Shown here piece after piece: positions 9,783-62,300 of a stretch of 64,000 bases of DNA. The stretch is from NCBI GenBank assembly GCA_035326705.1, contig DAOLES010000001.1, positions 116,762-180,761 on the forward strand. Reading direction: 5' to 3'. A model generated the notes under the pieces. The model saw nothing but the letters and a program-made list of their open reading frames with translations, did not search any database and was not told the DNA's origin. A program made the position numbers and the translations under genes. Position 1 is the stretch's first letter. Every line of letters begins with the position of its first letter. The DNA comes from Oligoflexia bacterium (lineage in GTDB: Bacteria > Bdellovibrionota_G > JALEGL01).

Positions 9783-9853
9783 GAATTAATTTTCATTCTA
9801 ACAGCACAACACAAAAATGAAAATAAATGAAAAGTTTTAACTGTCGATTTTTA

Positions 9854-10293: not shown

Positions 10294-10671
10294 ATGTTTT
10301 GGTTAAGGTGGTCTGTAGCTCAATGTGGTTTAGCAGTTGTTTTTGGCGCATTTGCGGCACATTGGCTTAAATCATCTTTATCTGCCTATGAATTACAAGT
10401 ATTTGAAAAGGCAGTTCGCTATCAATTTTTCCATGGTTTGGCCATGATAGCGGTAGTTCTCATTATTAAGCAATATGCTTTGCAACTCAATAAAGTTCTT
10501 TCTTGTTTTGGACTAGGTAGCATAGCATTTTGTGGCTCATTGTATTGTTATACGTTATTTAAAATAAAGATCTTTGTGTTTATTACTCCCTTTGGTGGGG
10601 TTCTATGGACCATAGGCTGGTTGTTGTTATTTCTAAAATTAAAAAAGGTTAAAGGTAACACATATACATAG
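10294..10671 (+). CDS. DUF423 family membrane protein
   Basis: 4 TM helices. LAVVFGAFAAHWLK resembles the DUF423 N-terminal signature. Confidence 0.55.
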   Translation: MFWLRWSVAQCGLAVVFGAFAAHWLKSSLSAYELQVFEKAVRYQFFHGLAMIAVVLIIKQYALQLNKVLSCFGLGSIAFCGSLYCYTLFKIKIFVFITPFGGVLWTIGWLLLFLKLKKVKGNTYT

Positions 10672-12701: not shown

Positions 12702-13339
12702 ACGGCAGTAATTTCCTGTTCAAGGTCTTGATGTGTTTGAGCAATATGCTGCAGTGATGCTCTGATGTCAAAACGTTCAATTGTAAATGAGTTACTGAGG
12801 GCATCATAAATACCAAATGAGCCTAAGTGACCTTGGTCTCTTGGAAATCCACAGCTTCCGACATTAACAACTAAAGTGTCATCTATTTGTTTTGTGAATG
12901 GTCTATGTGTTGCGCCAAATACCAAGAGGTCTATACCCTTAGGTGGGGTGATGTCAGAATCAGTATAAGTGTAACCATAGATTGGATCGTTTAAAGAGCC
13001 ATGTTGTATTTGTATTTTTTTATTTATAAGTTGAAACTCTAATTGGGTGGGCCAAGTTTTTATAGTTGGAATAATTGAAGTGTTAAGGTGTTGTTTTAAA
13101 CGGTAATACTTTTCTTTATTATCGGGTATCTGATTATCTATAAGCATTTGTTCATGATTGCCACGGACTGCAATGATTTTATGTTGGTGAATCATGTTAA
13201 CAATGTCTGGGCTATCAAAATAACCTACGGCATCACCCAAAAAAAATATTTTTTCTACATGGTATTTTTTTAGAAGTTCAAGAGCTTGAGAAAAAGCATT
13301 TATGTTTCCATGAGCATCAGATAAAAAACCAACTAACAT
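12683..13339 (-). CDS. Metallophosphoesterase (calcineurin-like, YfcE/MJ0936 type)
   Basis: SDAHGN, FFLGDAVGY, RGNHE and late GATH motifs. Confidence 0.75.
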   Translation of the reverse strand: MLVGFLSDAHGNINAFSQALELLKKYHVEKIFFLGDAVGYFDSPDIVNMIHQHKIIAVRGNHEQMLIDNQIPDNKEKYYRLKQHLNTSIIPTIKTWPTQLEFQLINKKIQIQHGSLNDPIYGYTYTDSDITPPKGIDLLVFGATHRPFTKQIDDTLVVNVGSCGFPRDQGHLGSFGIYDALSNSFTIERFDIRASLQHIAQTHQDLEQEITAVWKRNH

Positions 13340-27402: not shown

Positions 27403-27750
27403 ATGAATTTAGAGCTTTTGTCAGATCAACAAATTTTAAAAATTTTAGGTGAGCGTTTTGAGGATTACCGTAGGGTCCAACAGATGCAGGACCAAGATAT
27501 CTTTAAAAGGGGTGGCGTTAAAAAAGACGCGCTGGCAAGTTTTAAAAAAGGCAGAAATATTTCTTTACTCAATTTTATAAAAATTCTTAGAGGGGCAGGT
27601 TTGTTAAGTCATTTAGAAACAATGATTCCTGAAAATGAAAAATTTAGCCCAATCAATGAGATAGAAAATAAGTCAAAAGAACACCCGGCAAGAATACATA
27701 AAAAGAAAAATAAAAAAGAGCCTACATTTCATTGGGGAGATGAACAATGA
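27403..27750 (+). CDS. hipB: XRE-family HTH protein, putative HipB-like antitoxin
   Basis: HTH-like segment. 4-nt ATGA overlap with the downstream HipA gene. Confidence 0.5.
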   Translation: MNLELLSDQQILKILGERFEDYRRVQQMQDQDIFKRGGVKKDALASFKKGRNISLLNFIKILRGAGLLSHLETMIPENEKFSPINEIENKSKEHPARIHKKKNKKEPTFHWGDEQ

Positions 27751-29069
27751 CGCCCCCATGCAGTATTCATTTATGGGGTACAACAATAGGAGCTGTGTCC
27801 TATAAAAAAAATGATCAGAGTCTTGCACTATTTGAATATCATCCCAAGTTTTTAAATTCTAATATTCAACTGTCACCAATCTCTATGCCGCTAAGACCTG
27901 GGGTCTTTTCTTTTCCCAATATAAGTCAAAGAACATTCAAAGGTTTACCAGGTATTTTGGTAGATAGTTTGCCAGATAAATTTGGTAATCAGTTGATAGA
28001 TCAACATATGGCCAGCAAAGGTTATGCTTCAAATGAAATCAGTGCGATAGACCGTTTACTTTATGTTGGGCAACGTGGGATGGGAGCACTTGAATATCAG
28101 CCAGCTCTCAATATGAATGAAAATGATGGATATATGGGAGGCATGTTAGATTTGAATGCATTGGCAGAATTAAGCCAAGTTATATTATCCAGAGAACAAA
28201 AATTTCTACAAAAAATAAAAAACAGCAAAGACCAACAAGTGGTGTTTGATCTTCTAAGAGTTGGAACAAGTGCTGGGGGCGCTAGAGCAAAAGCTTTAGT
28301 AGCTATTCATAAAAAAAATGGAGACGTTTTACCACCCAATGTGATGAACCCACAAGACTACAGCCATTGGTTGGTTAAATTTGATGGGGTGGATAACAAT
28401 CAAGATAGAGATGGTAAAGATCCTAAAGGTATGACTGTTGTGGAGTATATCTATTCAATGATAGCCCAGAAGTGCGGTATTGATATGCCAAGATGTCAAT
28501 TGTTAGAAATACACGGGCAAAGGCATTTTTTAATAGAACGTTTTGATAGAGTTTTAAAAAATGAAAAGTTGGATAAACTGCATTACGCTTCATGGTGTGG
28601 CTTAGCACATGCCCATAGAGATGAAACACTGGCTTATAGCTATGAACAATTGGTTTTACTGATGCGTCAATTGAACTTACCACAGAGCGATATCGTTAAG
28701 CTTTTTAAGCGGGCAATGTTTAATATTATTGGTAGAAATCAAGATGATCATACTAAAAATTTTGGCTTCTTGATGGATAGAACAGGGCAGTGGTCGTTAT
28801 CACCGGCGTTTGATATGACTTACGCCTATGATCCAACAGGACAGTGGACTAAGACTCATCAAATTACACTGAATGGCAAAGGAAATGACTTTCAACAACA
28901 GGACTTATTGAGTTTTGCACAATATTGTAACCTGTCAAAACGACAAGCAAAGGATATCATACAAAATACAATAGATGCCTTTTCTCAGTTTGAAAAATTA
29001 GCTAAAGAATATGATTTGAATAAACCTTTAACAAAAACTATCAGCAGTACGTTAAGATTAAAATTATAA
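27747..29069 (+). CDS. hipA: HipA-family Ser/Thr kinase toxin (full length: HipA_N coupling domain + HipA_C)
   Basis: N-terminal GLPGILVDSLPDKFGNQL and C-terminal catalytic NQDDHTKNFGFL...SPAFDMT motifs. 440 aa. Confidence 0.85.
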   Translation: MTPPCSIHLWGTTIGAVSYKKNDQSLALFEYHPKFLNSNIQLSPISMPLRPGVFSFPNISQRTFKGLPGILVDSLPDKFGNQLIDQHMASKGYASNEISAIDRLLYVGQRGMGALEYQPALNMNENDGYMGGMLDLNALAELSQVILSREQKFLQKIKNSKDQQVVFDLLRVGTSAGGARAKALVAIHKKNGDVLPPNVMNPQDYSHWLVKFDGVDNNQDRDGKDPKGMTVVEYIYSMIAQKCGIDMPRCQLLEIHGQRHFLIERFDRVLKNEKLDKLHYASWCGLAHAHRDETLAYSYEQLVLLMRQLNLPQSDIVKLFKRAMFNIIGRNQDDHTKNFGFLMDRTGQWSLSPAFDMTYAYDPTGQWTKTHQITLNGKGNDFQQQDLLSFAQYCNLSKRQAKDIIQNTIDAFSQFEKLAKEYDLNKPLTKTISSTLRLKL

Positions 29070-36533: not shown

Positions 36534-37823
36534 ATGTTGTATAACTTAGTGTCTTTATTGGGTATAGTCGGTATTATTGGTATCGCATGGTTGATGTCAA
36601 ACAATAAAAAAGCATTTCCATGGCGTCAAGTTCTGTGGGGATTAGGCTTACAATTTCTCATTGCCATTTTTGTTTTTGTTTTGCCTGTAGGTAAAACTTT
36701 ATTTCTTTGGATGAATGATTTAGCGGTGACTTTAATTGGATACGCTACAGAGGGCGGAAAATTTGTTTTTGGTGGTTTGGCAACCCGTAGTATGGCTACT
36801 AAAGAAGGTGCTGCGCCTGGATCAGATTTTGTGTTTGCCTTTGAAGTTCTGACAACGGTTATTTTCTTTTCCTCATTGATTGGTGTTCTTTATTATATAA
36901 AAGTTATGCAAGTACTGGTTAAAGCTTTTGCTTGGGTGATGCAAAAAACCATGAAAGTATCAGGTGCTGAAGCTTTGACAGCGTCGGCCAATATTTTCTT
37001 TGGCCAGTCTGAAGCCCCTATTGCAGTAAAACCTTATATTCCTAAGATGACTCAATCAGAAATCATGTCCATGATGACAGGTGGATTTGCTACCGTTGCT
37101 GGCGGTGTTATGGCAGCGTATATTGGAATGCTACATGAGGTGTTTCCAAACATTGCAGGACATTTGATTTCTGCATCGGTTTTATCTGCTCCAGCAGCAT
37201 TGATGCTAGCCAAGGTAGTTTTTCCTGAAACTGAAAAACCCTTAACTCAAGGTGAAGTTGCTATGAATGTAGAAACTGAAGATGTGAATGTTTTGGATGC
37301 AGCGGCTACAGGAGCTGCCTCTGGATTACACTTAGCTTTAAACATTGGCGCCATGTTGATAGCTTTTATGGCTTTATTGGCTATGATTAATGCCATTATT
37401 GGTTACTTTGGCTCTATGCTAGGCATTGATAGTTTAAGTTTGCAAAAAATCTTGGGTTGGACGCATTACCCTATTGCTTTGATGATGGGGGTTTATCCTC
37501 AGGATGCCATGACCGTAGCAACGCTTCTAGGAGAGAAGTTGATCTTAACAGAATTTGTGGGTTACTTAAACTTGACTCATATTTTAAAGGAAGGTGTGAT
37601 TCAATTGCATCCTAGGTCAGTTGTGATTGTAACCTATGGCTTATGTGGCTTTGCTAACTTTGCTTCCATCGCGATTCAAATTGGCGGTATAAGAGCAATT
37701 GCCCCTAGTAGATCTTCTGACTTAGCTAAGTTAGGTTTAAAAGCGATGTTTACTGGGGCACTGGCAGCCTATTTAACTGGAAATATTGCTGGGATCTTTT
37801 TTTCTGGTAATACTATTTTATAG
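36534..37823 (+). CDS. nupC: Concentrative nucleoside transporter NupC family
   Basis: CNT family length and topology. Nucleoside_tran N and C regions (…GGFATVAGGVMAAYIGM…). Confidence 0.85.
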   Translation: MLYNLVSLLGIVGIIGIAWLMSNNKKAFPWRQVLWGLGLQFLIAIFVFVLPVGKTLFLWMNDLAVTLIGYATEGGKFVFGGLATRSMATKEGAAPGSDFVFAFEVLTTVIFFSSLIGVLYYIKVMQVLVKAFAWVMQKTMKVSGAEALTASANIFFGQSEAPIAVKPYIPKMTQSEIMSMMTGGFATVAGGVMAAYIGMLHEVFPNIAGHLISASVLSAPAALMLAKVVFPETEKPLTQGEVAMNVETEDVNVLDAAATGAASGLHLALNIGAMLIAFMALLAMINAIIGYFGSMLGIDSLSLQKILGWTHYPIALMMGVYPQDAMTVATLLGEKLILTEFVGYLNLTHILKEGVIQLHPRSVVIVTYGLCGFANFASIAIQIGGIRAIAPSRSSDLAKLGLKAMFTGALAAYLTGNIAGIFFSGNTIL

Positions 37824-37855
37824 AATCATGAGCTGATTAAAAGCACGACTCTCAT

Positions 37856-37893
37856 AAAAAAAGCCTATGCAGTTTTCAGTGCATAGGCTTTTT
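37856..37893. terminator. Bidirectional rho-independent terminator (A7-AGCCTATGCA-GTTTTCAG-TGCATAGGCT-T4/5), copy 1
   Basis: 10-bp perfect stem, 8-nt loop, A-tract 5' and T-tract 3'. Lies between convergent nupC and deaminase genes. Confidence 0.75.
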
Positions 37894-37923
37894 ATTGATG
37901 ATAACGTTAACTATTCAGCTTTA

Positions 37924-38742
37924 CTAATTTGATCCAAGCTTGGCATCAATTTCCTCACGAGTTGTAGAAAATATTTTTTCACTGAGGTTTATAAGATCTT
38001 TATCATCCGTTGAGAGTTGCTTAAAACTAAGATTTTGACCGCCAGCAATCCATTGCCATACAAATGGGTTGTATTTGAATTTTTCGCCAATCGCCATGGC
38101 ACCAGCATTTGAGGTTTTTTGAAGGGAATCTTTCCCTAAGAACTCATTTTGAACCAGATCACCATCTATGGCGGATGAAATAGATAGATTTGCTTTAGCA
38201 TTGATAATCATCACCATACACATGGGACAAGGCTCTAAAGTTCCATAAACGTAATAGCCATCTTTACTAAATTGTTGAGTGCCTTTGTTTGTATTGACAG
38301 GGTAACTGGTAACAGGCTCAACTAGGTTAGATCGAGCTATGTTTTCTTCACTCATTTCAAGATTGTATTGGTTTTTGCCATTATTTAAGTAATGTTTATA
38401 GGCAACTGCATCTTCTAAAGCTCTTGCTTCGGCATGGTCAGTTATACCAGGGCCTGTTACCATTGCGTTACGTCCGGGAAACTCATAAATAACACCATCA
38501 TTAACTAAAAGTACAAGGGCACCAATACCGTAGTTACCTTCATTAAAGGCCGCTAAAGCTGAAGCCAATGCTTTTCTTGCGTAGTAAGCATGTTGCCCAA
38601 TTTGATAAGTATTTATTGTTTTTGCTAAGTAACGCTCAACTTGATTAGCTATATGTACATCGTCAGTATTGGTTTGAGCAATAGCAGATTGATGACTGAA
38701 AATTAGAAAACAAATGCTAAATAATAAAGATAGTTTTTTCAT
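37924..38742 (-). CDS. Secreted (Sec signal peptide) cytidine/deoxycytidylate-deaminase-fold zinc enzyme
   Basis: Signal peptide MKKLSLLFSICFLIFSHQSAIA. HAE (…DHAEARALE…) and PCxxC (…EPCPMCM…) CDA-fold zinc motifs. GGGGG RBS 8 nt upstream of the chosen ATG. Confidence 0.65.
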   Translation of the reverse strand: MKKLSLLFSICFLIFSHQSAIAQTNTDDVHIANQVERYLAKTINTYQIGQHAYYARKALASALAAFNEGNYGIGALVLLVNDGVIYEFPGRNAMVTGPGITDHAEARALEDAVAYKHYLNNGKNQYNLEMSEENIARSNLVEPVTSYPVNTNKGTQQFSKDGYYVYGTLEPCPMCMVMIINAKANLSISSAIDGDLVQNEFLGKDSLQKTSNAGAMAIGEKFKYNPFVWQWIAGGQNLSFKQLSTDDKDLINLSEKIFSTTREEIDAKLGSN

Positions 38743-38860
38743 TGTAAACCCCCAATTCAATTATGGTTATATTGAAGTCTTAATAGCAGGTTATATGTGA
38801 TGCTTCAAATGAAAATGATTAAAAATTAGCTCTAGGTTGTGTTTTAAAGGCTTACAATAT

Positions 38861-39727
38861 ATGTCAGCCAACATGATTGATGTAGAAATATTGAGAGCAA
38901 AAATAAAGACTGCAGTGGAATATTTATCAGATGCTAATGTAGCGAATATAAAAGCAAAATATCTCATTGTTTTGGGTTCTGGGCTCAGTGAAGCGATTGA
39001 TGATTGGGAAATGATTCATGCATTTGCATATAAAGAAATTCCCGGGTTTCCTGAACATATAATAGAGGGGCACAAAGGTGAAGTGAGGCTTTATAAAATT
39101 AATGGTAGTGATGACTATGCCTGGGTATTAACTGGAAGATTTCATAGTTATCAAGGTTATGACCCTGCTGAGTGTGCTATACCTATTAGAGTTGCTGCTG
39201 GATTAGGGGTGAGCCATGTTATTCTTACTTGTGCAGCTGGAGGAATTAATGAAAACTACAATCCAGGCGATATTATGTTCTTAAATGATCATATCAATAG
39301 TACTGGAATGAGTCCATTTAGAGGGCCAAATTTGGATGAGTTTGGACCAAGATTTTTAGATCTAACAGAAGTTTATGATGATGCTTTTTTACAAGACTTA
39401 AAAAGAGCTGCAAAACAAGCAGATATTTTTACCCAAGAAGGTGTTTATGTTTGGCACTGGGGCCCAGAGTACGAGACACCTGCAGAGATAAAGCGTTGGG
39501 CAATTTTAGGTGCAGATGCAATTGGAATGTCTATGGTTCCTGAAGCTATGGTGGCAAGACATCATCAGCTAAAAGTGGCAGGTATTGCTTGTATCAGCAA
39601 TAAAGCGGCAGGTATGTCAGAAAAAGGAAGAAAAGGTAAGCTTGACCATAAAGAAGTATTAGAGGTTGGTCAGCAAAGCAGCCAAAAGCTCAAAAATATT
39701 TTAAATCAGTATTTTCAAAAAAATTAA
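38861..39727 (+). CDS. Purine nucleoside phosphorylase, PNP/MTAP family 2
   Basis: GSGLS…GRFHSYQGY…LTCAAGGIN…GDIMFLNDHIN motifs of PNP-I/MTAP enzymes. ATG at 38861 preferred over the track's TTG at 38837. Confidence 0.75.
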   Translation: MSANMIDVEILRAKIKTAVEYLSDANVANIKAKYLIVLGSGLSEAIDDWEMIHAFAYKEIPGFPEHIIEGHKGEVRLYKINGSDDYAWVLTGRFHSYQGYDPAECAIPIRVAAGLGVSHVILTCAAGGINENYNPGDIMFLNDHINSTGMSPFRGPNLDEFGPRFLDLTEVYDDAFLQDLKRAAKQADIFTQEGVYVWHWGPEYETPAEIKRWAILGADAIGMSMVPEAMVARHHQLKVAGIACISNKAAGMSEKGRKGKLDHKEVLEVGQQSSQKLKNILNQYFQKN

Positions 39728-39734
39728 GAGGTAG

Positions 39735-40289
39735 ATGACTATGTTAGATTATCCAAAAGATTACTTTTTACCTGCACTTATTAGCCAAGAACAACTAAAA
39801 AAGAAAATACATGAATTAGGACAGCAAATTACAAGAGACTATCAAGATAAAGAGATTTTATGTATTGGTGTTTTAAACGGAGCAGTTCAATTTTTAGTGC
39901 ATTTAATTGAAGAAATTAAATTACCGCTTAATATAGATTTTATATCAGTCTCAAGTTATGGCGACTCAACTGAATCAAGTGGAAAACTATCGTGGCGTCT
40001 TAACTTATTGCAAGATATTAGCAATAAACATGTGATTATTGTTGAGGATATTATTGATACCGGCATTACATTGCATGAGGTTAAAAAAGAGTTTTTAAAG
40101 CAAAATCCAAAGTCATTAAAGATAGCGTCACTGTTCTCTAAACCTTCGAGACGAGAAATAGATGTAGATATAGATTATCTTGGGTTTGAAATTGAAAATC
40201 ATTATGTTGTCGGCTTTGGCTTTGATTATCAAGGCTATTACAGAAACTTACCGCACGTAGCAATCCTGCCTGAAGACAGGTACAAATAA
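39735..40289 (+). CDS. hpt: Hypoxanthine-guanine phosphoribosyltransferase
   Basis: PRPP-binding motif VIIVEDIIDTGIT. 184 aa. Confidence 0.9.
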   Translation: MTMLDYPKDYFLPALISQEQLKKKIHELGQQITRDYQDKEILCIGVLNGAVQFLVHLIEEIKLPLNIDFISVSSYGDSTESSGKLSWRLNLLQDISNKHVIIVEDIIDTGITLHEVKKEFLKQNPKSLKIASLFSKPSRREIDVDIDYLGFEIENHYVVGFGFDYQGYYRNLPHVAILPEDRYK

Positions 40290-41140: not shown

Positions 41141-41770
41141 TTATTTTTTACTCAGTCTTGAGCTTATAACGCCACCAAAGACTGGAATAAGTGAGATGAA
41201 GATAATCAGTAAAACAGCTTTTTCAAAGTTTTGTTTAATAATGGGTACATTGCCTAAAAAGTAACCTGCCATAGTCATTGAGGTGATCCATGCAATACCA
41301 CCAAATATATTATAACTAACAAACTTTTTATAATTCATATTTGCCATGCCAGCCACAAAGGGAGCAAAAGTCCTTACAATTGGAACAAAACGCGCCAATA
41401 CAATGGTTTTACCACCATGCTTATTGTAAAACGCTTGAGTTTTTTCAAGGTGAGACTTTTTAAAAAAAAGAGAATTGTCTTTGAATTGTATACGGTCCCC
41501 TGAGGTTCTACCTAAAAAATAGCCAACCGTATCCCCTACAATGGCCGCAATAATCAGTAAAATATTAAGCCAAACAATATTTAGAATGCCCGTACTTGCT
41601 GCAAATCCAGTAATGAACAAAAGGGAATCACCAGGGAAAAAAAAACCAATTAATAAGCCTGTCTCTGCAAAAATAATGGCAAATAAAATAGGATAGGATA
41701 ACCACCCCCAGTTTTCCATAAATATAGGGAGCTGTTGTAAGTCGAAGAGGGTTTTTATTTGTTCTATCAT
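41141..41770 (-). CDS. DedA/SNARE-associated family membrane protein
   Basis: FFPGDSLLF and GRF motifs of DedA proteins. 4-nt overlap with upstream NhaC-family gene. Confidence 0.8.
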   Translation of the reverse strand: MIEQIKTLFDLQQLPIFMENWGWLSYPILFAIIFAETGLLIGFFFPGDSLLFITGFAASTGILNIVWLNILLIIAAIVGDTVGYFLGRTSGDRIQFKDNSLFFKKSHLEKTQAFYNKHGGKTIVLARFVPIVRTFAPFVAGMANMNYKKFVSYNIFGGIAWITSMTMAGYFLGNVPIIKQNFEKAVLLIIFISLIPVFGGVISSRLSKK

Positions 41771-43347
41771 GAGGGGTCGCTTGCGTTAGTTTTTCCAAAA
41801 ATATTGACAGTTGCAATTAATATTACAATTCCTAACAATAAGCTAATAAAGGGTGAAAAACCCAAAATTAATGCAGATTCTCCCACCAATAAACCCACTA
41901 ATGCAACCAATAAAGCATAGGGAAGTTGGGTTTGAACGTGGGTCATTAAATTACACTCTGATGAAGAAGCTGACATTACGGTTGTATCAGAAATTGGAGA
42001 ACAATGATCTCCAAAAATAGATCCAGCTAATACTGAACCAACGCTTGCGGTTACCAACATTTGAATATCTGCGGGACTTATGCCAGACTCAGAAGCTATA
42101 GAGTAAGCCAATGGAGCTGAAATAGGCATGATGATTGCCATGGTTCCATAACTTGTTCCAGTAGCAAAAGAAACAATTGCCGCAGTTAAAAAGGTCATAG
42201 CTGGAATAAAGTAAGGTGAAATCTTGCCTTGCAAGAGTTGTAAAATATACTCAGCACTTTTTAAGTCTTTAGTGACTTGCGCTAAGGCCCATGCCAAAAC
42301 CAAAATAACACAAGCAGGAAGCATGCTCTCAAAACCATTCATGATAGCTTGCATAGACTTTTCTGTATTTAAGGTTTTTCCAAATAAGCTAAAAAGAATG
42401 GTAAACACTAAACTTAAACTTGTTCCCCAAATTAAGCTTTTGTATGCATCAGCATTACCTAAAGCTTCTTGAAGAAAACCAATTCCACTCAAACCATGAT
42501 TTTGGCCAAGAGATTGATAACCAGTAATAAACAAGCTGGTTAAACACGATAAAATTAAAAACAATAAAGGAACAATCGCAAAAATACTGGAAGATGTGTT
42601 GTTATAGATATCATCGTGACTTGTATCAATGCGGGTGCTGATATCAATGGGTGAGTCACTCAGCTTTGAATACTTTGCCATGGTCCAAAGATCTTTACCT
42701 TTGTAGATAGTGTAAAATACAAAAAAGATCATGAGTAAAGGGTAAAATCTATAAGGCAAAGAGTTGATAAACATTTGATAGGCACTGACAGGACTCTCAA
42801 AATGCATATCTTTTAAGGCATCACCAATGAGACCCACTTCTGTACTGATCCAAGTTGATACCAAGGCAATACTTGCAATGGGAGCACTGGTAGCATCAAC
42901 AATGAAAGCCAGTTTTTCTCTTGATATTTTATACTTGTCATATAGGGGACGCATGGTTTTACCTAAGATTAAACTATTGGCATAATCATCAAAGAAAATA
43001 CAAAGACCAAGAAACCAAGTACTCAGCTGAATACTTTTAGCACCTTTAGCTTTTGAACTGATCCAGTTGACCATAGCACGAGTGCCACCATTATATTGAA
43101 TGAGACTGCTAATAGCTCCAATAAAAAGAGTACTGATTAATATTGCTGCATGGTCACCGTCGCCCAAAGCATTTAATAAATAGGTATCAAAGCTTTTAAA
43201 AAAAGCAGAAAAGATACTGCCATCATGCAATAAAAACGCACCCAACCAAATACCTGCCAACAAAGAAATATAGACTTGCTTGGTAACAAAACCTAAAATA
43301 ATAGCTAAAATAGGAGGTAATAAACTGCTAAAGCTTGGATTATTCAT
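41767..43347 (-). CDS. NhaC-family Na+/H+ antiporter-like transporter
   Basis: 526 aa polytopic protein with NhaC-like N- and C-terminal repeats. Family call moderate. Confidence 0.6.
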   Translation of the reverse strand: MNNPSFSSLLPPILAIILGFVTKQVYISLLAGIWLGAFLLHDGSIFSAFFKSFDTYLLNALGDGDHAAILISTLFIGAISSLIQYNGGTRAMVNWISSKAKGAKSIQLSTWFLGLCIFFDDYANSLILGKTMRPLYDKYKISREKLAFIVDATSAPIASIALVSTWISTEVGLIGDALKDMHFESPVSAYQMFINSLPYRFYPLLMIFFVFYTIYKGKDLWTMAKYSKLSDSPIDISTRIDTSHDDIYNNTSSSIFAIVPLLFLILSCLTSLFITGYQSLGQNHGLSGIGFLQEALGNADAYKSLIWGTSLSLVFTILFSLFGKTLNTEKSMQAIMNGFESMLPACVILVLAWALAQVTKDLKSAEYILQLLQGKISPYFIPAMTFLTAAIVSFATGTSYGTMAIIMPISAPLAYSIASESGISPADIQMLVTASVGSVLAGSIFGDHCSPISDTTVMSASSSECNLMTHVQTQLPYALLVALVGLLVGESALILGFSPFISLLLGIVILIATVNIFGKTNASDPS

Positions 43348-44521
43348 AACTTATCTCCTTAATAGTTTTATGAGTATTTGTCATATTTTTGTAATGATTA
43401 TTTTGGATAAAGTTTTTTTTGATTGGACAATGACCAAGACGGGTCATTATATTGTATGAAACTGTATTTTCCCATCCAGCAAGGTCATCAAAACCAATTT
43501 GTTCGTTTCCTTGTTGACCAATTAAGATGACATCGTCATCTAATTTAACATTTTGAATTTGACTTACATCGATCATACATGCATCCATTGCATTACCGCC
43601 AACGATAGGAGCTTTTTGCCCATGGATTAACACATAACCTTTGTTTCTTATTCTTGGGTAGCCTTGGCCATAACCTAAAGGTATTGCAGCAATAATTGCA
43701 GTAGATTTTACTTTGTAATGCATTCCGTAACCAATACAGTCGCCTGGGTAAAATTTTTTAATAGAACATATTTTTGTTTTCAAAGTTAAGATAGGTTCTA
43801 ACTCTTTAAGCTGTCGACAGGTATTTGAAGGGTGGAGTCCAGATAAAAGGATACCAAGCCGTACCATGTCAAAGTGAGCCATAGGTATGTCCAAATAACC
43901 ACCTGAATTACAAGCATGAACTATTGGTTTATTCTGCTTTATAAATGAAGATATACTGTTAAGGCAGAGTTTAAAGCGTGAAAGTTGTAAGTTGGCATAG
44001 TCTTTATTATTTGCATCAGACTGGGCAAAATGAGTCATTAACCCTGAGATAATAAGGTTAGGATAATTTAGAATTTGATTGAAAAAAAAATTAAAATCAT
44101 TGTGACGTACTCCAAACCTTCCAAGACCCGTATCAATATTAATATGACAATGAGTAACTTTTCCAAGTTTAGAAGAAATTTTATTTGAATACTGAGCTTG
44201 CCATAATGTGGAAATTGTAAAAATAAAACCGTTATCAATACAGTAGGGGATGCTTTGTAAACTAGGTTCACCTAGAACAAGAATGGGTGTGTTTTTTGCG
44301 TAGGGTTTTATTTTTAAAGCTTCAGTTATATTGGCCACAGCAAACATATAAGGATTTAAATGCTTTGTTAAAAAACTAACCATTTGACATGCATCGTGAC
44401 CATAAGCGTTGTCCTTGACTACACAGCAGATCTTTAGGTTTTTTGGCATATCTTGAGTTATAATTTTAAGATTATTCTTAAGTGCATCAAAATTAATATC
44501 AATTTGGTTGGGTGAAATCAT
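43340..44521 (-). CDS. Alanine-racemase-family PLP enzyme (fold type III)
   Basis: CVVKDNAYGHD (PLP-lysine motif AVVKANAYGHG). MTHFA, IPLGYGQGYPR and GGNAMDACMIDV motifs. Start set at MISPNQ (alignment with Alr N-terminus). Track ORF extends to 44608. Confidence 0.75.
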   Translation of the reverse strand: MISPNQIDINFDALKNNLKIITQDMPKNLKICCVVKDNAYGHDACQMVSFLTKHLNPYMFAVANITEALKIKPYAKNTPILVLGEPSLQSIPYCIDNGFIFTISTLWQAQYSNKISSKLGKVTHCHINIDTGLGRFGVRHNDFNFFFNQILNYPNLIISGLMTHFAQSDANNKDYANLQLSRFKLCLNSISSFIKQNKPIVHACNSGGYLDIPMAHFDMVRLGILLSGLHPSNTCRQLKELEPILTLKTKICSIKKFYPGDCIGYGMHYKVKSTAIIAAIPLGYGQGYPRIRNKGYVLIHGQKAPIVGGNAMDACMIDVSQIQNVKLDDDVILIGQQGNEQIGFDDLAGWENTVSYNIMTRLGHCPIKKNFIQNNHYKNMTNTHKTIKEISYE

Positions 44522-44531
44522 GTAGTGTCTC

Positions 44532-45734
44532 TTATAAAGGCCAAAGGGTTTTACCAATATCGGTTCTATAAAAACTTCCATAAGACTGAATATCTTTTGC
44601 ATAGTCATATAGCTTCTTTAAACAAGCGTTTAAATTATCATCTGATGCAATGATGTTAACAATACTGTGACCTTGTTTTGCATGTAAAGAGTTCCCTTTT
44701 TTAATGACATCCTCCCAAAAATAAGCACAGTCAGCATGTGTTTTTTTTTGAATAGGATAATGATAGTGTTGGTTTTTATTTGGATATTGGTGCGATACGA
44801 TATGAAGTAGACATGAATAAGTTTTATTTGCTTTAATTTTTATATCAAAAGCTTTACTAAGGTGTAGTTTTTTAAAAGTATTAAAAAAATTATCTATACT
44901 TAGCATAATCATGGGGCCAGAACTAACGCCCAAACGAGTGTTAAATTCTAATACCTGCCATAGATTATTGCTTCTTATTGCAGTTACTTGCAAAGGACCG
45001 CAATAATTAATTTTTTTAAACCAAGGTTTAAGTGGTGTAATAAGTTGCTTCACCAATTGGTAACGATCATTTTGATCCATTTCAATAAGTCCACCCATTG
45101 GTGTAGATAATGTTTCACCTAAATTGCCTGTGTATAGTTTTTTATACTCTTGGTTGGTGCATAGAGGATAAATCTTTCCATGGTTGATAAATACCGTATG
45201 ACCGGCTTCATTTTGTCCAGCATACTTTTGCAAAAAAACACCATCGCTGCAGTCAGTTTGCTTTAATAAGGTCAGTGTTTGTGCATAACTGGTACAAACA
45301 GTTGTTTTTACTTTACTCATTGGAGATGAAAATCTATTTTTAATGACATAGGCGGCAGGATTTTTTTTTATGAAATTTAAGGCATTGTTTTGATTGCAAA
45401 AAGCATAAGAATCAACAAAAGCTATATTGTATGTATCACATAAAGTTTTAGCAAAAAATCGATCTTTTTCAATTGCTAGGGCATGTTGATTCACGGCTAA
45501 CGTTTTTATATTGTGTGTTTTAAGGAAAGCTTCATCTATAAAATCACGCCAGTTTATGGATGTCGGGTATAAGTAATCTATACGATGTTGAATAATGTAA
45601 TCATGTAGATCTTTTTTAGTTAAGACATCATGCGTTGACAAGTAATGTATGTCTAGATTTTTATTGTTAGATTCACAGTTTTTAAGGGCTTCATACAAAA
45701 TATTATTGCCTAGAATGAGTAAACGTTGTTGCAT
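44532..45734 (-). CDS. PurD-like (phosphoribosylamine-glycine ligase family) ATP-grasp enzyme, divergent
   Basis: QEYKKLYTGNLGETLSTPMGG vs PurD QDHKRVGDKDTGPNTGGMG. VLEFNTRLGVSSGPMIM vs PurD VIEFNCRFGDPETQPIM. N-terminal GGREHA motif replaced by NNILYEA. Confidence 0.55.
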   Translation of the reverse strand: MQQRLLILGNNILYEALKNCESNNKNLDIHYLSTHDVLTKKDLHDYIIQHRIDYLYPTSINWRDFIDEAFLKTHNIKTLAVNQHALAIEKDRFFAKTLCDTYNIAFVDSYAFCNQNNALNFIKKNPAAYVIKNRFSSPMSKVKTTVCTSYAQTLTLLKQTDCSDGVFLQKYAGQNEAGHTVFINHGKIYPLCTNQEYKKLYTGNLGETLSTPMGGLIEMDQNDRYQLVKQLITPLKPWFKKINYCGPLQVTAIRSNNLWQVLEFNTRLGVSSGPMIMLSIDNFFNTFKKLHLSKAFDIKIKANKTYSCLLHIVSHQYPNKNQHYHYPIQKKTHADCAYFWEDVIKKGNSLHAKQGHSIVNIIASDDNLNACLKKLYDYAKDIQSYGSFYRTDIGKTLWPL

Positions 45735-45773
45735 AAGCTTGCTCCAAATTTTTTAATGAAAAATCTCAGGCTA

Positions 45774-46757
45774 CTAAGATAGCTGTTGGTACAAAAAATT
45801 TAAGTGTTGTTTGAGATCAGATTTTGTTAGATCATGAATCTCTGTACTATGTTTGTGAAAAATAAACTTAATGTGTGAAAGGTTTGTGTTTTTCTGTAAG
45901 ACTTTAAAGGTTTCTTTAGGTTTGTTGTTAGGATTACCTACAACAATAATTTTGTACAAACCATTGATTTGTTGCTGGTATAAAATACCAATAAGAGATT
46001 GATTGTTGCTAAGATTGGTGTGAATTTCAGTTGTTAGATTTTTTTTAACGGGGGAGGTGAGAAAAAGTTTTATTTGATGGTCTTGGGCATATTGTATCGC
46101 TTTTTCATGAATAACAGGGCTGGTATTTTTAGAGAATAATTTTAATTGTTCGTAATCTAGATTAGATATTATTTTTGCTTCTTTGACCATCTTAGGATTG
46201 CAAATGTATAAGGGACCAGGGTTTTTTAAAAAAATACATTGTTCAGCATTATAAAGATGTGCAAGATGAACCGCGCTTACATCCGAGCAATCAAAGCTCA
46301 TGGCTTGATAGCCACATTGTTTTGAGTGGCCAATGAAGCCAGGGATGATAGGTATTATGTTTTTAGTTAAACACTGTGATATAAGATTTTGATTAATTGT
46401 ATCGATTTCCCATTCATTGTTATTTTTCTGCAGGTGTATAGGTGTTTGCTCAAAAATCAATGCTTTGGATTTTAGCTGACTTTGATTAATATAAGTTTCA
46501 ATGAGATTGCATGAAAAAAACTCTGCATGACAAAAAACATTGTTGTAATCATTTTGATGATTTGGACTAAGGTTCTCAACAATTTTTTTAATTTTTCTAC
46601 TATGCCCAGATAAGGCTGAAGCAAGGAGAATGATTTGTTTATTCTGCTTTTGTAAGTGGCTTAAGAAATCAATAATTTTTGGCAATGTGTTTTTTAGGTC
46701 TTTGCTTTTACCTAAGCTAGATTCACCTAACTTAACAACAACAATATCGTGATGCAT
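45774..46757 (-). CDS. Amino-acid-kinase (AAK) family protein, aspartokinase-like catalytic domain without ACT domains
   Basis: N-terminal IVVVKLGESSLG (cf. VVxKFGGTSV) and IPIIPGFIG (cf. VPVVTGFIG). Confidence 0.45.
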   Translation of the reverse strand: MHHDIVVVKLGESSLGKSKDLKNTLPKIIDFLSHLQKQNKQIILLASALSGHSRKIKKIVENLSPNHQNDYNNVFCHAEFFSCNLIETYINQSQLKSKALIFEQTPIHLQKNNNEWEIDTINQNLISQCLTKNIIPIIPGFIGHSKQCGYQAMSFDCSDVSAVHLAHLYNAEQCIFLKNPGPLYICNPKMVKEAKIISNLDYEQLKLFSKNTSPVIHEKAIQYAQDHQIKLFLTSPVKKNLTTEIHTNLSNNQSLIGILYQQQINGLYKIIVVGNPNNKPKETFKVLQKNTNLSHIKFIFHKHSTEIHDLTKSDLKQHLNFLYQQLS

Positions 46758-46959
46758 GTGTCTGTCCTCAGATTTAAAATTTTATAGGGTAAAAGTCTAT
46801 TTGGACTAAGCGATCAGCTTACTCAATTGATATCAAAAAAAAATATCATGTCAATCATTTTATCTTGCATAATCTTAAAAAAAAATAGAGTGTTAATTTA
46901 AGCAGACTGCTTTTGCGCTGAGCGCCAATAAAACCTTATAAATTAAGGAGCTCAGTATC

Positions 46960-48063
46960 ATGCAAGAAAATCGTTTCTCATCCTATTTTAATACATTGAA
47001 ATATTATGAAATATTAAATGAGTCTGGTTGTATAAATCAAAAAAATGATTGGTTTTTACATTTGCTGATAGTTGGAGATAAGCACTCTAAAATCATACAA
47101 TGTAAGAGTCTAAAAAGTTTAAAACCTTACTCCAATAAAAACGATGCGATTACACCTTTTTTTATAAGACATTTTTCAAATGATGATTTTTCACATGATG
47201 ATTTTTGTCTTAATCATTATGAAAAAGTAACAAAAAATATATACTATCCCAAAATACAACTTTGTTTACCTTATGTTCCTATTGAGGGGGATAAACTAAT
47301 CTTTAATAATATGATGAATGAGCGCAATACAATAAAAATGTATTCTTTGCTTTTAGCTTGGGCAAAACATAAAAAATATAATTCGATACATGTCACTTTA
47401 CCAAAGCAACAAGATTATAAAATTCTTAAAAATATAGGTTTTTTTAGCTCACAAAAACAACTGTGTTATTGGTATAATAAAAGTTATAAAAACTTTGATG
47501 ATTTTTTAAACAAACTTAAATCTAAATACCGTTGCCAAATCAAAAAAGAAAGAACTCATATAGAAGATAAAGGTTACCTGAGCCATAGTGTTACAGGCAA
47601 TGAACTAAAAAAAAGTCATATTGATTTATTTTGGCAATTGTTTGAATTAACCCATTATAGAAAAAACTGGATCATGTCTAAATTAAACAAACAGTTTTTT
47701 TATCAAGCATGGCTAAAAAGTCCCAATCATATTGTTTTGAATTTTTTAACAAAAGATAAAAAAACCGTTGCTGTATCATGGTCTTTCCTGCATGAGAACA
47801 TGTTATGTGGTCGTTTTTGGGGAAGTCTTTTTGATCATGACTATGTTCATTTTGAAGTTATGTATTATTTGCTGATAGACTATGCAATTAAACATAATCT
47901 TAATAGCATAGAAATAGGGTTTGCTAACTTACATAAAATAATTAGAGGTTTTGAACCGCAATCAAGATGTAATTTTCACTATTTTTTTGATGACAAATAC
48001 AATCAAGATTTAAAAAATTATTCAGTAAAGCATCAGAACTATAAAAATATTTTTTTACAATGA
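46960..48063 (+). CDS. DUF482 / BioF2-like (FemAB-type GNAT-fold) acyltransferase family protein
   Basis: DFLNKLKSKYRCQIKKERTHIEDKG and LCGRFWGSLFDHDYVHFEVMYYLLIDYAIKHNLNSIEIGFANLHKIIRGFEP closely follow the PF04339 consensus. AAGGAG RBS. Confidence 0.6.
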   Translation: MQENRFSSYFNTLKYYEILNESGCINQKNDWFLHLLIVGDKHSKIIQCKSLKSLKPYSNKNDAITPFFIRHFSNDDFSHDDFCLNHYEKVTKNIYYPKIQLCLPYVPIEGDKLIFNNMMNERNTIKMYSLLLAWAKHKKYNSIHVTLPKQQDYKILKNIGFFSSQKQLCYWYNKSYKNFDDFLNKLKSKYRCQIKKERTHIEDKGYLSHSVTGNELKKSHIDLFWQLFELTHYRKNWIMSKLNKQFFYQAWLKSPNHIVLNFLTKDKKTVAVSWSFLHENMLCGRFWGSLFDHDYVHFEVMYYLLIDYAIKHNLNSIEIGFANLHKIIRGFEPQSRCNFHYFFDDKYNQDLKNYSVKHQNYKNIFLQ

Positions 48064-49551: not shown

Positions 49552-50604
49552 ATGAGTTTAATAGCCAGTATTCAAGATATTTTACAAAATGACAGTCACT
49601 TATTAGAGCATGAGTGCAAAACAATAGATAAAAGCCTATTGCATCATCCCAATCCAGACTTTATTAATCAGGTCTGGAGTGTTTCTGATCGTCCAATCAA
49701 TGTTTTGCGAAACTTGCAAAGTATGTATGATCATGGTCGTTTAAGTAATAGTGGTTATATTTCTATATTACCTGTTGATCAGGGCATAGAGCACTCAGCA
49801 GGGGCTTCTTTTGCGCCCAATCCCATTTATTTTGATCCTGAGAATATTGTTAAACTGGCTATTGAGGGGGGCTGCAATGCGGTAGCAACAACCAGTGGCG
49901 TGTTAGGTGCGGTTGCGCGCAAATATGCGCATAAAATTCCATTTATTTTGAAGATCAATCATAATGAACTGTTGTCTTATCCCAATAGATATGAACAAAT
50001 TATGTTTGCAGACATAGAACAAGCTTACACTATGGGCTGCGCAGGTATAGGTGCTACTATTTATTTTGGTTCAGAAGATTCTAATCGGCAGATTGTTGAA
50101 GTCTCTGAGGCTTTTGCTATGGCCCATGAGTTGGGTATGTTTACAGTTTTATGGTGTTACTTGCGTAACAATGAATTTAAAAAAGATAAAGACTATCATG
50201 TGGCAGCAGATTTAACTGCACAAGCCAATCATTTAGGGGTTACTATTCAAGCGGATATCATCAAACAAAAAATGCCAGAAAACAATGGTGGTTACAATGC
50301 TATTAAATTTGGTAAGACATCACCGATAGTATACGATCAACTGAGTTCAGATCATCCCATTGATTTAACCCGTTACCAAGTGGCCAACTGTTATATGGGA
50401 AGAGCAGGTTTAATTAACTCTGGGGGTGCATCTGGTAAAAATGATCTTCATGATGCGGTTAAAACAGCAGTGATCAATAAAAGAGCGGGTGGTATGGGAT
50501 TGATTAGTGGGAGAAAAGCTTTTCAAAAACCTATGGATGAGGGTGTTAAATTGCTCAACGCCATTCAAGATGTGTATCTTTGTAAACAGGTGACGCTAGC
50601 ATAA
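49552..50604 (+). CDS. fbaB: Class I fructose-bisphosphate aldolase (DhnA/FbaB type)
   Basis: 350 aa, near colinear with E. coli FbaB (…[23 protein letters not shown]…[16 protein letters not shown]…[12 protein letters not shown]…). Confidence 0.9.
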
Positions 50605-58719: not shown

Positions 58720-59310
58720 ATGAGTCAGTTGTCATTGCTTAGTGGATTAGATTCTAATCAGTATAAAATTTTGTATTTTGATTTAGAAACCAAGAAATCA
58801 GCTGAAGAAGTAGGCGGGTGGTCAAATATTAAAGATATGGGGATGGCATGTGGTGTTTTATATGATTCTGAAGACGACCTATACCATGTTTACTTAGAAG
58901 ACCAAGTTCATGAAATGATCAAACACATAAAATCTGCGGATTTAATTGTAGGTTTTAATCATATCTATTTTGATTATAAAGTTTTAACGGCATATGATAA
59001 TTTTAATTACAATAGATTAAATAACTTTGATTTATTATTGGATATTGAAATGCTATTAGGCAGAAGATTAAAACTAGATGCCTTAGCAAAAACTACCTTA
59101 AAAAAGCAAAAAACTGCTGATGGATTACAAAGTTTACAGTGGGTTAAAGAAGGAAAAATAGATCAGGTCATCGATTACTGCAAGGCTGATGTTGAAGTAA
59201 CAAAAGATTTATTTTTATTTGGAGTTGAAAATAATTTTATTTTATACCCAGATAGAGGTCAAAAAGCTCAGCTTAACGTGAATTGGAATATTGATAAGTT
59301 GGTTAAGTAA
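58720..59310 (+). CDS. DEDDy-type 3'-5' exonuclease (DnaQ-like/RNase D-like fold)
   Basis: Exo I LYFDLET. Exo II LIVGFNHIYFDYKVL. Exo III YCKADVEVTKDLF. Confidence 0.6.
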   Translation: MSQLSLLSGLDSNQYKILYFDLETKKSAEEVGGWSNIKDMGMACGVLYDSEDDLYHVYLEDQVHEMIKHIKSADLIVGFNHIYFDYKVLTAYDNFNYNRLNNFDLLLDIEMLLGRRLKLDALAKTTLKKQKTADGLQSLQWVKEGKIDQVIDYCKADVEVTKDLFLFGVENNFILYPDRGQKAQLNVNWNIDKLVK

Positions 59311-62300
59311 TGAAAATGAAACGTTCAGTCGACATTTTTTTATTTGTAACTTTTTTGCTGGCTTTATCAGTATTTGCAAAATCAAATTCTTATTTAAATT
59401 TTCAAGAACGTCGCCAGTTATTTAAAGATGAGTTGCAGTTCAATGACTCACATGAAGTTTTACGTTATGCAAGTAGTCATTTGCATCAACATGAATATTA
59501 CTACGGCAGTAGCGGGGATCTTTTTGAGCAATTTGTTCAGTTTTTATTTCCACTGACTGGAAGAGAAAATAGGATTATGTTTATGCCACTTTCTGCTTGG
59601 GGCCCTAAAAAACCTCAGTATAAAAAATTTGATTGGCAAAGATATGAGTCTCAACACTTTGTATTTTATTATGATAAAAATGCTTACTCTTCATTTAAAA
59701 AAGCGCATGCATTTTTAGAAGATGATTTTGCACGTAACAACGAAATTTTTTCAGTTAGAAATAAGTTTTTAAAAAAGATTCCCATTATAATTTATCAGTC
59801 AAGAAAAGATTTTGAACAAACAAATATTGTAAGTGGTCCAGTGCCAGAGGGCTTAGGAGGTGTAACCGAAATTTTTTCATGGAAAAGAGCCGTATTTCCC
59901 TTTGAAGGTGAAATGTCAACTTTTGAACATGTGACCAAACATGAAGGTACGCATATCTATCAAATAGCTAAGGGAGCAAAAAACTTACCATTATGGTTTA
60001 TTGAAGGTTCTGCTGAAACTAATTCAATATACTGGGATGCTGATGCGGAACAATTTATTAGAGATGCGTATTTAAATGATCTGTTTTTTGATATTGATGA
60101 TTTATGGCAAATTCGTGGCACTTGGTTGATGTATAAAATTGGCAACTATATTTGTAATTTTATTCGTGAAAAGTACGGTGAGAGAGCTTTGCAAAAAATT
60201 TATCAAAATTCAGTTTCCTTGAATTTTAATGAAAACATTAAATTATCTTTAGGAGTGTCTTTGCAAGAACTCAATAGAATGGTGCAAGCATCATTATCTA
60301 TGAAATATGGGTATTTATATAAAAAAAATAATCCATATGACAAAGCTCTAAAAGTACAAAAGAGATCCGTTGTTTTACATGCATATAAAAACTTTTTTAT
60401 CAGTGGTAAAGGAAATGGCTCTAGTAATGCTTTATACATTAACTATATTGATGAAATGAGTAAAGTACATAAGAAAAAAATAATTTCAGATAAAAAATTA
60501 AATAGTGAATCATTGAATTATTTTAGAAAAGGGGCATGGTTGAATGAATCTAGTTTAGTTTATTCAATAAAAAATGGGTCTCATGATGAAATAAGATTAC
60601 TTAATTATACATTTGATAAAAAAAAGAAACGTTTTAAGTTTGATAAAAAACCACATTTAATTCGTTTTCAGAAGATAAGATCGATTTTTTCACCTGTAAT
60701 AGTTGGTGATAACAAAGTAGTATTTATTGGTATCAAAAACGGTTTTAGCAATATTTATCAATATAATTATATTGAGAAAAAACTTGAACAAATAACAAAA
60801 GATTCTGCACATTATTCAAATTTAGATTACTCAGCTGCTAAAAACACAATAATTTTTTCTAAAGAATTGGAGCGTTCTCAAGATAGAATTTATTATAACA
60901 GAGATATTTTTGAATATGATTTAAAAACTCAGAAAATAATACCAATTACGCAAACTTCAGATATTAGAGAAAATAATCCTAGGTATTCAATATCTGGAAC
61001 TAATATTATATTTTCATCAGATGAAGATGAAACACATAATTTATATTTGTATAACACGTTAACTAGAGCCAAACAAAAATTGACAAATCATCCTTCAGGT
61101 ATAAAAACAGCCGTTTGGTCTCAAAATGAATCATTGTTGTTAAATGTGAATAATCGGTTTGTTTCCGATATTGTGCACATGCCACTTCCTAAACCCTTTG
61201 ATATGCTTAATAATGAAATTAATTTTGATTCTTCAAAATCAATATCAGTTTTTTCAGAAAATAACGCCTATATATATTCTCCAAAAAATTTAGATGAAAA
61301 AACTACAGAAATTGAAGTTGAATTCAACTCAAATAAAAAAATTACCACTGGTAACAATAATACTTTTCTTCAGCACAATGATCAGAAATTTAAAGTTCAA
61401 AAAATTGCTGCTTTTGAAAATGAATTGTTTATTCAGGCCACAAATATAAACGATGATAAAAAAAGAATTCAGTCACTTGAAGATAAAATATTATATTTTA
61501 GGGTTAACAAAAATACCCTTGAATCTATATATGATCCAGTTATTCAAAAAGATTCGTCTTCAAAATCAATTAATCAAAAAATAAGTAAGATATTAAAAGA
61601 TAAAGTCATTATTTCAGTTTGGGAGTTTAAGGATACAGCAGATGCTTTAGTTCTTGTTAATGAAAAACTCAGTACGCAGGATAAGTCACAAAATAATAGT
61701 AAAGCGATAACAAATTTATACTCATGTGATTTGGAAAAAAATAACTGTGAAGTGTTGCGAGGGTCAAGATTAGAAAATTTTAAAAAGGATATTTTTTGGG
61801 TAGCAAAATTAGAGGGGGGCTCTTATTTGTGGACTTTATCTGAAAATAAAAATGGTCCATATGAGATTTTTTTGTATGATCATAAACTAAAAAAAACCAT
61901 AAAAGTAGGTAATGAGGTTTTAAGATTTAAAGTTGCTGAAACTCAAAACTCATTTTCTATGTTGGTAGGATCTGACTTTATTGTTTACGATTTTTCAGAG
62001 GAAAAAGGATGGACTGCAAAACAGTATGAGCCAAATGGCAGTATCATAGGGTATGATTTTTTAAAAAAATCAAATGACTTTATGATTTTAACCAGCCATA
62101 AAAAACATTTAAATATTCATTTACTTAAAAAAGATAAAACAGTTTTAAAAAAAGTAAAACATTCTATCAATAACCTTGTTCTTGCAACAATTAATAAAAA
62201 GACTGGAGATTTTGTTGTTTATGCAAAGTCTCAAAATAACTCAGAGATGATCGATAAGCTTTATTATTATGATAAAAAGACTGAAGAATTTTATGATATA

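Follow-up and report, generated by a model that had tools for sequence, protein, structure and literature searches.

Gene content and layout of the locus

The locus described here lies in a stretch of 64,000 nucleotides (hereafter the window; contig DAOLES010000001.1, positions 116,762 to 180,761 of the forward strand) from an Oligoflexia metagenome-assembled genome (MAG; GCA_035326705.1), with a GC content of ~33%, and centres on a gene for an ATP-grasp ligase that resembles the purine-biosynthesis enzyme PurD (glycinamide ribonucleotide synthetase, GARS) and is followed by a gene for alanine racemase (Alr). Comparison across genomes places these two genes at the core of a conserved module, and the PurD-like protein, judged by its scores and residues, in a paralogue family separate from the GARS enzymes. 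A first-pass annotation of the window, made from the sequence and its open reading frames (ORFs), had named six genes at this locus, and its positions and domain calls for all six were borne out by the ORF list, Pfam and NCBIfam.

Five of the genes lie on the minus strand, beginning with a short aspartokinase-like amino-acid kinase (AAK; 45774..46757, 327 aa) that matches AA_kinase (PF00696, 102 bits) over residues 5-234. It is followed by the PurD-like ATP-grasp ligase (44532..45734, 400 aa), with matches to GARS_A (27.6 bits) and GARS_C (31.7 bits) and none to GARS_N, and by Alr (43340..44521, 393 aa), with Ala_racemase_N and Ala_racemase_C domains. Two membrane proteins complete the series, an NhaC-family transporter (41767..43347, 526 aa; Na_H_antiporter PF03553, 178 bits) and a DedA/VTT-domain protein (41141..41770, 209 aa; PF09335, 75 bits; DedA family model NF008102, 210 bits against a cutoff of 236). 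Divergent from the enzyme genes, on the plus strand, lies a FemAB_like gene (46960..48063; PF04339/COG3146, 228 bits) that encodes a tandem-GNAT protein and predicted aminoacyl-tRNA-dependent transferase, and the 202 bp between it and the AAK gene (46758..46959) presumably hold both promoters.

Successive minus-strand genes, from AAK to DedA, are separated by 39 bp and 10 bp and then overlap by 8 bp and 4 bp. This spacing suggests the single transcript that had been proposed for them, while promoter and terminator scans added no support, being uninformative in this AT-rich DNA (47 promoter-like sites versus 37 expected). One promoter-like site was found on the minus strand of the intergenic region (46896-46869), where such sites are not enriched. 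The same region (46758..46959) is conserved with a sister genome only; it fell below the gathering score of every Rfam family, relaxing the threshold to E<=1 brought up nothing meaningful, and no riboswitch or leader RNA was found upstream of the AAK gene.

The longest reading frame of Alr reaches 44608, but the start at 44521, which gives the 393-aa protein, agrees with homologues and with one gene caller. Alr scored 296.7 bits on TIGR00492 against a cutoff of 168, and its best PDB match is the alanine racemase 4y2w (216 bits). In the alignment with 4y2w the pyridoxal phosphate (PLP) lysine K36 (VVKDNAYGH), the catalytic tyrosine (IGYG) and the arginine that contacts the PLP pyridine (MVRLG) are all kept. 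By score and residues, Alr is a canonical alanine racemase and bears no mark of a special subfamily.

The PurD-like ATP-grasp protein

The PurD homologue had been described in the first-pass annotation as keeping the C-terminal PurD motifs, as having lost the N-terminal GGREHA motif and as looking unlike a part of de novo purine synthesis, and all three statements agree with the comparison made here. On the purD equivalog model TIGR00877 the window protein scored 79.2 bits against a cutoff of 288, its relatives 91.8-112.8 bits (Verrucomicrobial members 102-113), and two true PurDs from the same search (P0007 and P0008) 452 and 505 bits. Identity between the PurD-like protein and PurDs is 21-25%. 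A Foldseek search with its AlphaFold model, which is of moderate confidence (mean pLDDT 72.5), returned PurD structures as all of the 15 best PDB matches (TM 0.70-0.77), with biotin carboxylases next. In a rough neighbour-joining tree of a small sample, all family members fell on one long branch, apart from the two true PurDs.

Active-site residues of Aquifex PurD (PMC8880213) were transferred to the family through a phmmer alignment to 2YW2 and then counted in 69 members. Those that bind ATP and Mg correspond to invariant positions in all 69, namely the Mg residue E89 of the window protein (Aquifex E100), the ATP residues R92 (K103), K132 (K143), Q169 (E185) and E176 (E192), and the ATP/Mg residue K198 (K214). 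Equally invariant are R267, which corresponds to the glycine-carboxylate arginine (R287), E196 at a glycine-site position (D212), and E263 and N265 of the LEFN motif, which has no listed Aquifex counterpart and which we take to bind metal. A C-terminal motif of the GSYYRTDIG type is also kept.

The positions that distinguish the family lie elsewhere in the pocket. The proposed base for the amine of phosphoribosylamine (PRA; Aquifex D290, human D295) is V270 in the window protein and V or I in 69/69 members, the position after it (P291) is S271 and is T or S in 68/69, and the glycine-site position E292 is S272 and is S in 65/69. The GARS signature R[LF]GDPEx[EQIM] (PROSITE PS00184) is gone, as R[LF]GDPE occurs in 0/69 members; R(L/I)G(V/I)(T/S)S stands in its place in essentially all of them, and the window protein reads RLGVSSGP. 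GGREH likewise occurs in 0/69, the loop reading LGNNILYEA in the window protein and GVGAF(S/T)Q in Verrucomicrobial relatives, and the GLAAGK B-loop is replaced as well. In human GARS, the proposed role of D295 is to bind the PRA amine and take up its proton, and that of R13 and E14 of GGREHA is to hold the PRA phosphate and ribose, while the B-loop is conserved among the GARS enzymes compared (PMC2978367). The same criteria were used in a survey of archaeal purine biosynthesis to set 'extra' haloarchaeal PurD-like proteins apart from real GARS enzymes (PMC3261824). Two of these, rrnAC0307 and Hlac_1553, are alike by description in that the GARS-signature aspartate is missing from them too and their N-terminal loop is divergent, but no linkage to Alr or to a transferase is reported for them.

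By score, signature motif and PRA-site residues, the PurD-like protein thus belongs to a separate PurD paralogue family and is not a GARS. It has in common with PurD (TIGR00877; PS00184; 2YW2, 1GSO, 2QK4) the four-domain fold, the ATP/Mg residues and the glycine-carboxylate arginine, but is linked to Alr and not to pur genes. As no canonical PurD was found in the flanks (+/-10 kb) of any locus examined, its status as a paralogue is argued from scores and residues and not from co-occurrence of both proteins in one genome. The kept and replaced residues are those of a putatively competent, acyl-phosphate-forming ligase that would still clamp a free alpha-amino acid in a remodelled pocket and pass it to an amine other than PRA. 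In public records, family members are called 'phosphoribosylamine-glycine ligase' or 'hypothetical', and where such a protein is the sole PurD-like match in a genome, the name could wrongly signal an intact purine pathway.

Two further parts of the window touch on this subject. Nucleotide salvage genes lie at 36534-40289, comprising a NupC-type nucleoside transporter, a cytidine/dCMP-deaminase-like protein whose N-terminus is hydrophobic, a purine nucleoside phosphorylase (PNP) and a phosphoribosyltransferase (HPRT). The window also encodes another ATP-grasp protein, unrelated to the PurD-like one (ATPgrasp_Ter/ATP-grasp_3, 351 aa), on the minus strand at 11646-13339, overlapping the end of a metallophosphatase gene and with glycosyltransferases and an epimerase nearby.

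Distribution and composition of the module

The sister genome (GCA_022763185.1), the only close relative, has 60-94% identity per protein and keeps the gene order of the window throughout the 21 kb, rpsD, hpt and the PNP gene included, and for that reason says nothing on functional linkage. Its four cassette genes are 60-71% identical to those of the window, versus 79-94% for their neighbours, so that the cassette evolves faster than its surroundings. A class I fructose-bisphosphate aldolase of the PRK09250 type, encoded on the plus strand of the window at 49552-50604 (NF006707, 653 bits), is 94% identical in the sister.

More distant genomes are informative. A Bdellovibrionales locus (L096, GC 41%) carries FemAB_like on the minus strand and AAK, PurD-like and Alr on the plus strand, in the order and relative orientation of the window, with identities of 41%, 34%, 32% and 42%, respectively, and with unrelated flanks (Fic, AsmA, methylmalonyl-CoA mutase and biotin carboxylase). 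Among the FemAB_like homologues from the protein search, the best outside the sister genome (P0163, 42%) belongs to a third lineage (L102-L105, GC 40.5%), in which FemAB_like is divergent from PurD-like and then Alr, without the short AAK; a generic PF04339 gene in Bosea, by comparison, has an unrelated context. In L102, FemAB_like is separated from a dapA-lysA-aspartokinase operon by an inserted AbiEii toxin gene with its small partner ORF (9578-10373).

Species-representative genomes were then scanned with the PurD-like alignment, which recovered 360 relatives, mostly from Verrucomicrobiota with some from Calditrichota and KSB1-type bacteria, and the loci of the best 80 of these were compared. 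An Alr homologue (33-43% identity) lies directly downstream on the same strand, at a median gap of 57 bp, in 63 of the 74 loci with >=1.3 kb of downstream sequence, and the start of Alr is visible in 6/6 loci with too little downstream sequence. A third gene, resembling the arginyltransferases Ate/Bpt, is nearby in 40/65 loci. Counterparts of AAK, FemAB_like, NhaC and DedA were found in none of the 80.

Because order and orientation recur at 32-42% identity with different flanks, PurD-like, Alr, AAK and the divergent PF04339 gene form a co-conserved unit and are not chance neighbours, in agreement with the earlier grouping of the three enzymes with the PF04339 protein. The conserved core is PurD-like plus Alr, usually accompanied by a tRNA-dependent transferase that comes from either of two unrelated families. 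These data bear directly on the view that the genes are housekeeping neighbours, in which a very divergent true purD would sit beside an alr and an aspartokinase for peptidoglycan in an order inherited by synteny. Such a view would fit the 21 kb held in common with the sister genome, the PurD fold and domain order, the passing of the alr equivalog by Alr and the name 'phosphoribosylamine-glycine ligase' given to a relative by one source. We consider it very improbable, as the genes stay linked across phyla and where the flanks have changed completely, the GARS signature and GGREH loop are lacking in all 69 members counted, scores stay below 40% of the PurD cutoff, and no de novo pur gene was seen within the 64-kb window, which has salvage genes instead.

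The transferase differs by lineage, being FemAB_like in the Bdellovibrionota-type version and distantly Ate/Bpt-type in the Verrucomicrobiota and Calditrichota. The model of FemAB_like (pLDDT 84.8) has the tandem-GNAT fold common to FemX, FemA and L-PGS, and its second-best structural match is Sbb17 (9wqx), an aminoacyl-tRNA-dependent peptide synthase of an antibiotic pathway. No member of PF04339/COG3146 with demonstrated activity was found in the literature searched, and one earlier functional prediction for the family has been invalidated (PMC3223725). The Verrucomicrobial third gene encodes a protein of ~267 aa that matched bacterial arginyltransferase models (Ate/Bpt, PRK01305) in 10/10 cases tested, at E-values down to 5e-15 and with scores far under the curated cutoffs. 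PDB profile searches with FemAB_like and with the Ate/Bpt-like protein returned nothing significant.

For the AAK, in turn, the best aspartokinase equivalog, NF006459, scored 100.7 bits against a cutoff of 535, and all such models remained far below their cutoffs. It had been described as lacking ACT domains, and no ACT domain was matched by Pfam, but the protein does have a C-terminal tail of ~90 residues, the start of which aligns with the first ACT region of the Synechocystis aspartokinase (3l76). The tail also aligns with its counterpart in the short aspartokinases (314-367 aa), a sparse family in which a single ~90-residue C-terminal tail replaces the two ACT domains and G(F/L)DGSD stands in place of GRGGSD. 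One member of this family (P0017, 27% identity) is the first gene of an AK-dapA-asd-dapB operon that has dapF and an aminotransferase gene as neighbours (L101, 777-4257), so that the family appears to include real diaminopimelate-pathway aspartokinases and looks like a minimal aspartokinase for that pathway. A shift of AAK substrate away from aspartate, considered on the basis of the G(F/L)DGSD motif, was dropped, since P0017 carries that motif.

An exhaustive HMMER search with AAK gave 8 representatives at E<1e-30. The closest relatives (34-63% identity) occur solely in PurD-like cassettes, and the nearest outside the sister genome (P0011, 34%) is located in the same cassette; the gene contexts of P0021 and P0013 were uninformative. 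A metagenome scan with the AAK alignment yielded 8 loci, and all of them lacked PurD-like and Alr genes. In alignment A2, the three cassette-linked AAKs differ from the other 13 in reading K(L/V)GES for KFGGS (G to E) and K(N/E)PG for KDVxG (D to N or E), and the window AAK has a degenerate GAR/K motif. Sequence comparison therefore points to AAK as a lineage-specific addition in two Bdellovibrionota-type lineages, probably derived from a diaminopimelate-pathway aspartokinase. The phosphorylated product suggested in the first-pass annotation is speculative in this light, given the descent of AAK from the short-aspartokinase family and its absence from most versions of the module.

NhaC (91% identical to the sister) and DedA are found only in the window lineage and its sister and are absent from L096, L102 and the 80 loci; they are local passengers outside the conserved module. 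The idea of a transporter pair serving biosynthesis and export consequently finds no comparative support, the sister being syntenic. This weakens the explanation in which the locus is a compact cluster, free of nonribosomal peptide synthetases, that makes a secreted small molecule (a dipeptide, a pseudopeptide or an N-acyl or phosphorylated D-amino-acid derivative) exported by the NhaC-family protein. The 8-bp overlap of the NhaC gene with the Alr stop codon, the faster evolution of the cassette genes and the structural match of FemAB_like to Sbb17 would all suit such a product, as would the argolaphos cluster, whose AlpC, AlpF and AlpO (the last of COG3146) exemplify the ATP-grasp ligases and GNAT-type aminoacyl-tRNA peptide ligases that are proposed to form amide bonds in small phosphonopeptide clusters (PMC8976061). 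The transporter, its one specific indication, is nevertheless missing from every other version of the module, and across the loci examined no gene for export, regulation, immunity or tailoring is found repeatedly alongside it. That a three-gene core is kept next to housekeeping genes in hundreds of Verrucomicrobial species speaks, moreover, more for core physiology than for a sporadic biosynthetic cluster, and we regard a secreted metabolite as unlikely.

Two other regions of the window were also recorded. A HipA-type toxin kinase (Couple_hipA, HipA_C) is encoded on the plus strand at 27747-29069 after a 115-aa ORF, probably as a toxin-antitoxin pair, and an ORF of 1528 aa with a preceding ORF of 196 aa, both without a Pfam match, lies on the plus strand at 59310-63896, where the GC content of the window is lowest (27-30%).

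A possible D-alanine ligation pathway

The module is tentatively read as a conserved peptide-bond-forming system, in which the PurD paralogue and Alr form the core, the aminoacyl-tRNA-dependent transferase varies with lineage and three steps are proposed; we rate this reading at not quite an even chance. D-alanine would first be produced by Alr, an activity predicted from family membership. The PurD-like protein would then use ATP to convert a small alpha-amino acid, most likely D-alanine, to an acyl phosphate in what is the glycine site of PurD, and the kept and replaced residues, together with the gene linkage, suggest that the acyl group would pass to an amine other than PRA. Finally, judging by fold and linkage, the tRNA-dependent transferase may add an amino acid to the free amine of the product.

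A related explanation would make the PurD-like protein a second D-alanyl-D-alanine or D-alanyl-D-X ligase, giving peptidoglycan stems an alternative terminus, for example one tolerant of D-cycloserine or glycopeptides, or acting as a conditional backup. The chemistry of an alanine racemase and an ATP-grasp ligase is that of the Alr-Ddl step, the PurD-like/Alr pair is tightly linked and the amino-acid carboxylate clamp is kept. In one locus (L066, 11074-20964), furthermore, the PurD-like gene, without an adjacent Alr, lies just beyond ftsZ, and convergent with it, where a complete mraY-ftsW-murG-murB-ddl-ftsQ-ftsA-ftsZ (dcw) cluster ends. In this genome, the one checked in this respect, the cluster also contains a canonical Ddl (303 aa; Dala_Dala_lig_N, Dala_Dala_lig_C) at a distance of 3.5 kb from the PurD-like gene, on which ground replacement of Ddl by the PurD-like protein was rejected. 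The similarity of the PurD-like protein to Ddl families is limited to the shared ATP-grasp fold, no VanX, VanY, VanH or VanS/R-type genes were seen in the window, L096 or L102, and a second ligase of this kind would leave the tRNA-dependent transferase without a role, so that we judge it distinctly improbable.

For the proposed D-alanine ligation, the neighbourhoods offer a hint at the destination of the product. L102 has the dapA-lysA-aspartokinase operon and dapB-dapF 1.4-6 kb from the module, and in Bacterium UASB14 (L068, 11292-16054) the PurD-like gene is followed by genes for a GyrI-like protein, a 331-aa protein, DapF, a decarboxylase of the Orn/DAP type and a GNAT protein, with no Alr there. 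The 331-aa gene had been taken by eye for a glutamate racemase, a claim dropped when it gave no Pfam match. In the window itself, DedA lies in the operon and a PBP1-type gene is ~8 kb away. The position of L066 next to the dcw cluster and the origin of AAK in an aspartokinase family count as further hints of this kind. Because versions of the module repeatedly adjoin diaminopimelate/lysine or cell-division genes, modification of the envelope or of a peptidoglycan precursor is somewhat more likely than a secreted metabolite. A more specific proposal, which we hold to be possible but doubtful, is that the paralogue family, with several hundred or more carrier species among the Verrucomicrobiota, Calditrichota and KSB1-type bacteria together with a few Bdellovibrionota, consists of D-alanine:amine ligases that, with Alr and the tRNA-dependent transferase, build a new D-alanine branch or peptide on an envelope precursor such as a diaminopimelate- or lysine-bearing intermediate.

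Several points weigh against a D-alanine ligation module. Alr passes the housekeeping equivalog model and may be the general, or only, alanine racemase of the cell; of the alternative raised in the first-pass annotation, a housekeeping alr amid unrelated neighbours, this half may therefore stand, whereas the neighbours are co-conserved. D-alanine as the substrate of the ligase is a proposal with two grounds, gene adjacency and the changed glycine pocket. The cassette-type AAK, given its changes at invariant positions, may not be a normal kinase. FemAB_like and the Ate/Bpt-like proteins show no similarity by BLASTP or hhalign, so that homology between them was rejected and their equivalence is one of fold class only. 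An adjacent Alr is lacking in 11 of the 74 informative loci, and the 80 loci are mostly Verrucomicrobial, so that counts among them are not independent events. Nearly all of the genomes are metagenome-assembled, and genes in the 80 loci were called by a simple ORF script. The diaminopimelate and envelope contexts, finally, are anecdotal, coming from four lineages and without statistics, and are a weak pointer.

If the proposed reaction is correct, a core purine enzyme has been recruited to amino-acid ligation through defined residue changes that are open to mutagenesis. Across phyla, the family is tightly coupled to alanine racemase and to tRNA-dependent transferases of two unrelated kinds, which suggests that these poorly studied phyla make a product containing D-alanine; it could be an envelope modification affecting sensitivity to antibiotics or lysozyme. 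PF04339/COG3146, a large family without an assigned function, would at the same time gain a concrete genomic partner and a testable reaction. Searches of the literature on PF04339/DUF482/COG3146, on PurD-like paralogues and on ATP-grasp ligases with alanine racemase, with most subscription journals outside their coverage, returned no description of the module.

The sets of ATP-grasp ligases and GNAT amidoligases in phosphonopeptide clusters offer a parallel to the pairing of the PurD-like protein with FemAB_like (PMC8976061). Sequence identity between FemAB_like and the solved tRNA-dependent enzymes FemX (4ii9), Sbb17 (9wqx) and MprF/L-PGS (6lv0 and 4v36) is 9-14%. The Alr/Ddl pathway provides a close chemical analogy, as a PLP racemase there feeds a D-amino acid to an ATP-grasp ligase that acts through an acyl phosphate; the racemase is canonical in both systems, while the ligase is of the Ddl type in that pathway and of the PurD type here. 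In Enterococcus faecium, the racemase gene of the Aslfm/Racfm system adjoins that of an ATP-grasp D-aspartate ligase acting on an amine of the peptidoglycan precursor, and in relatives of E. faecium Fem-type tRNA-dependent transferases do the equivalent job. Aslfm/Racfm differs from the window module in its racemase class, its ATP-grasp family and its Gram-positive host, and the module, if the envelope proposal is true, would in effect be for Gram-negative bacteria what the cross-bridge machinery is for Gram-positive ones. What appears to be new here is the combination of a racemase-fed ATP-grasp ligase and a tRNA-dependent transferase on an unexpected PurD scaffold, and its wide distribution.

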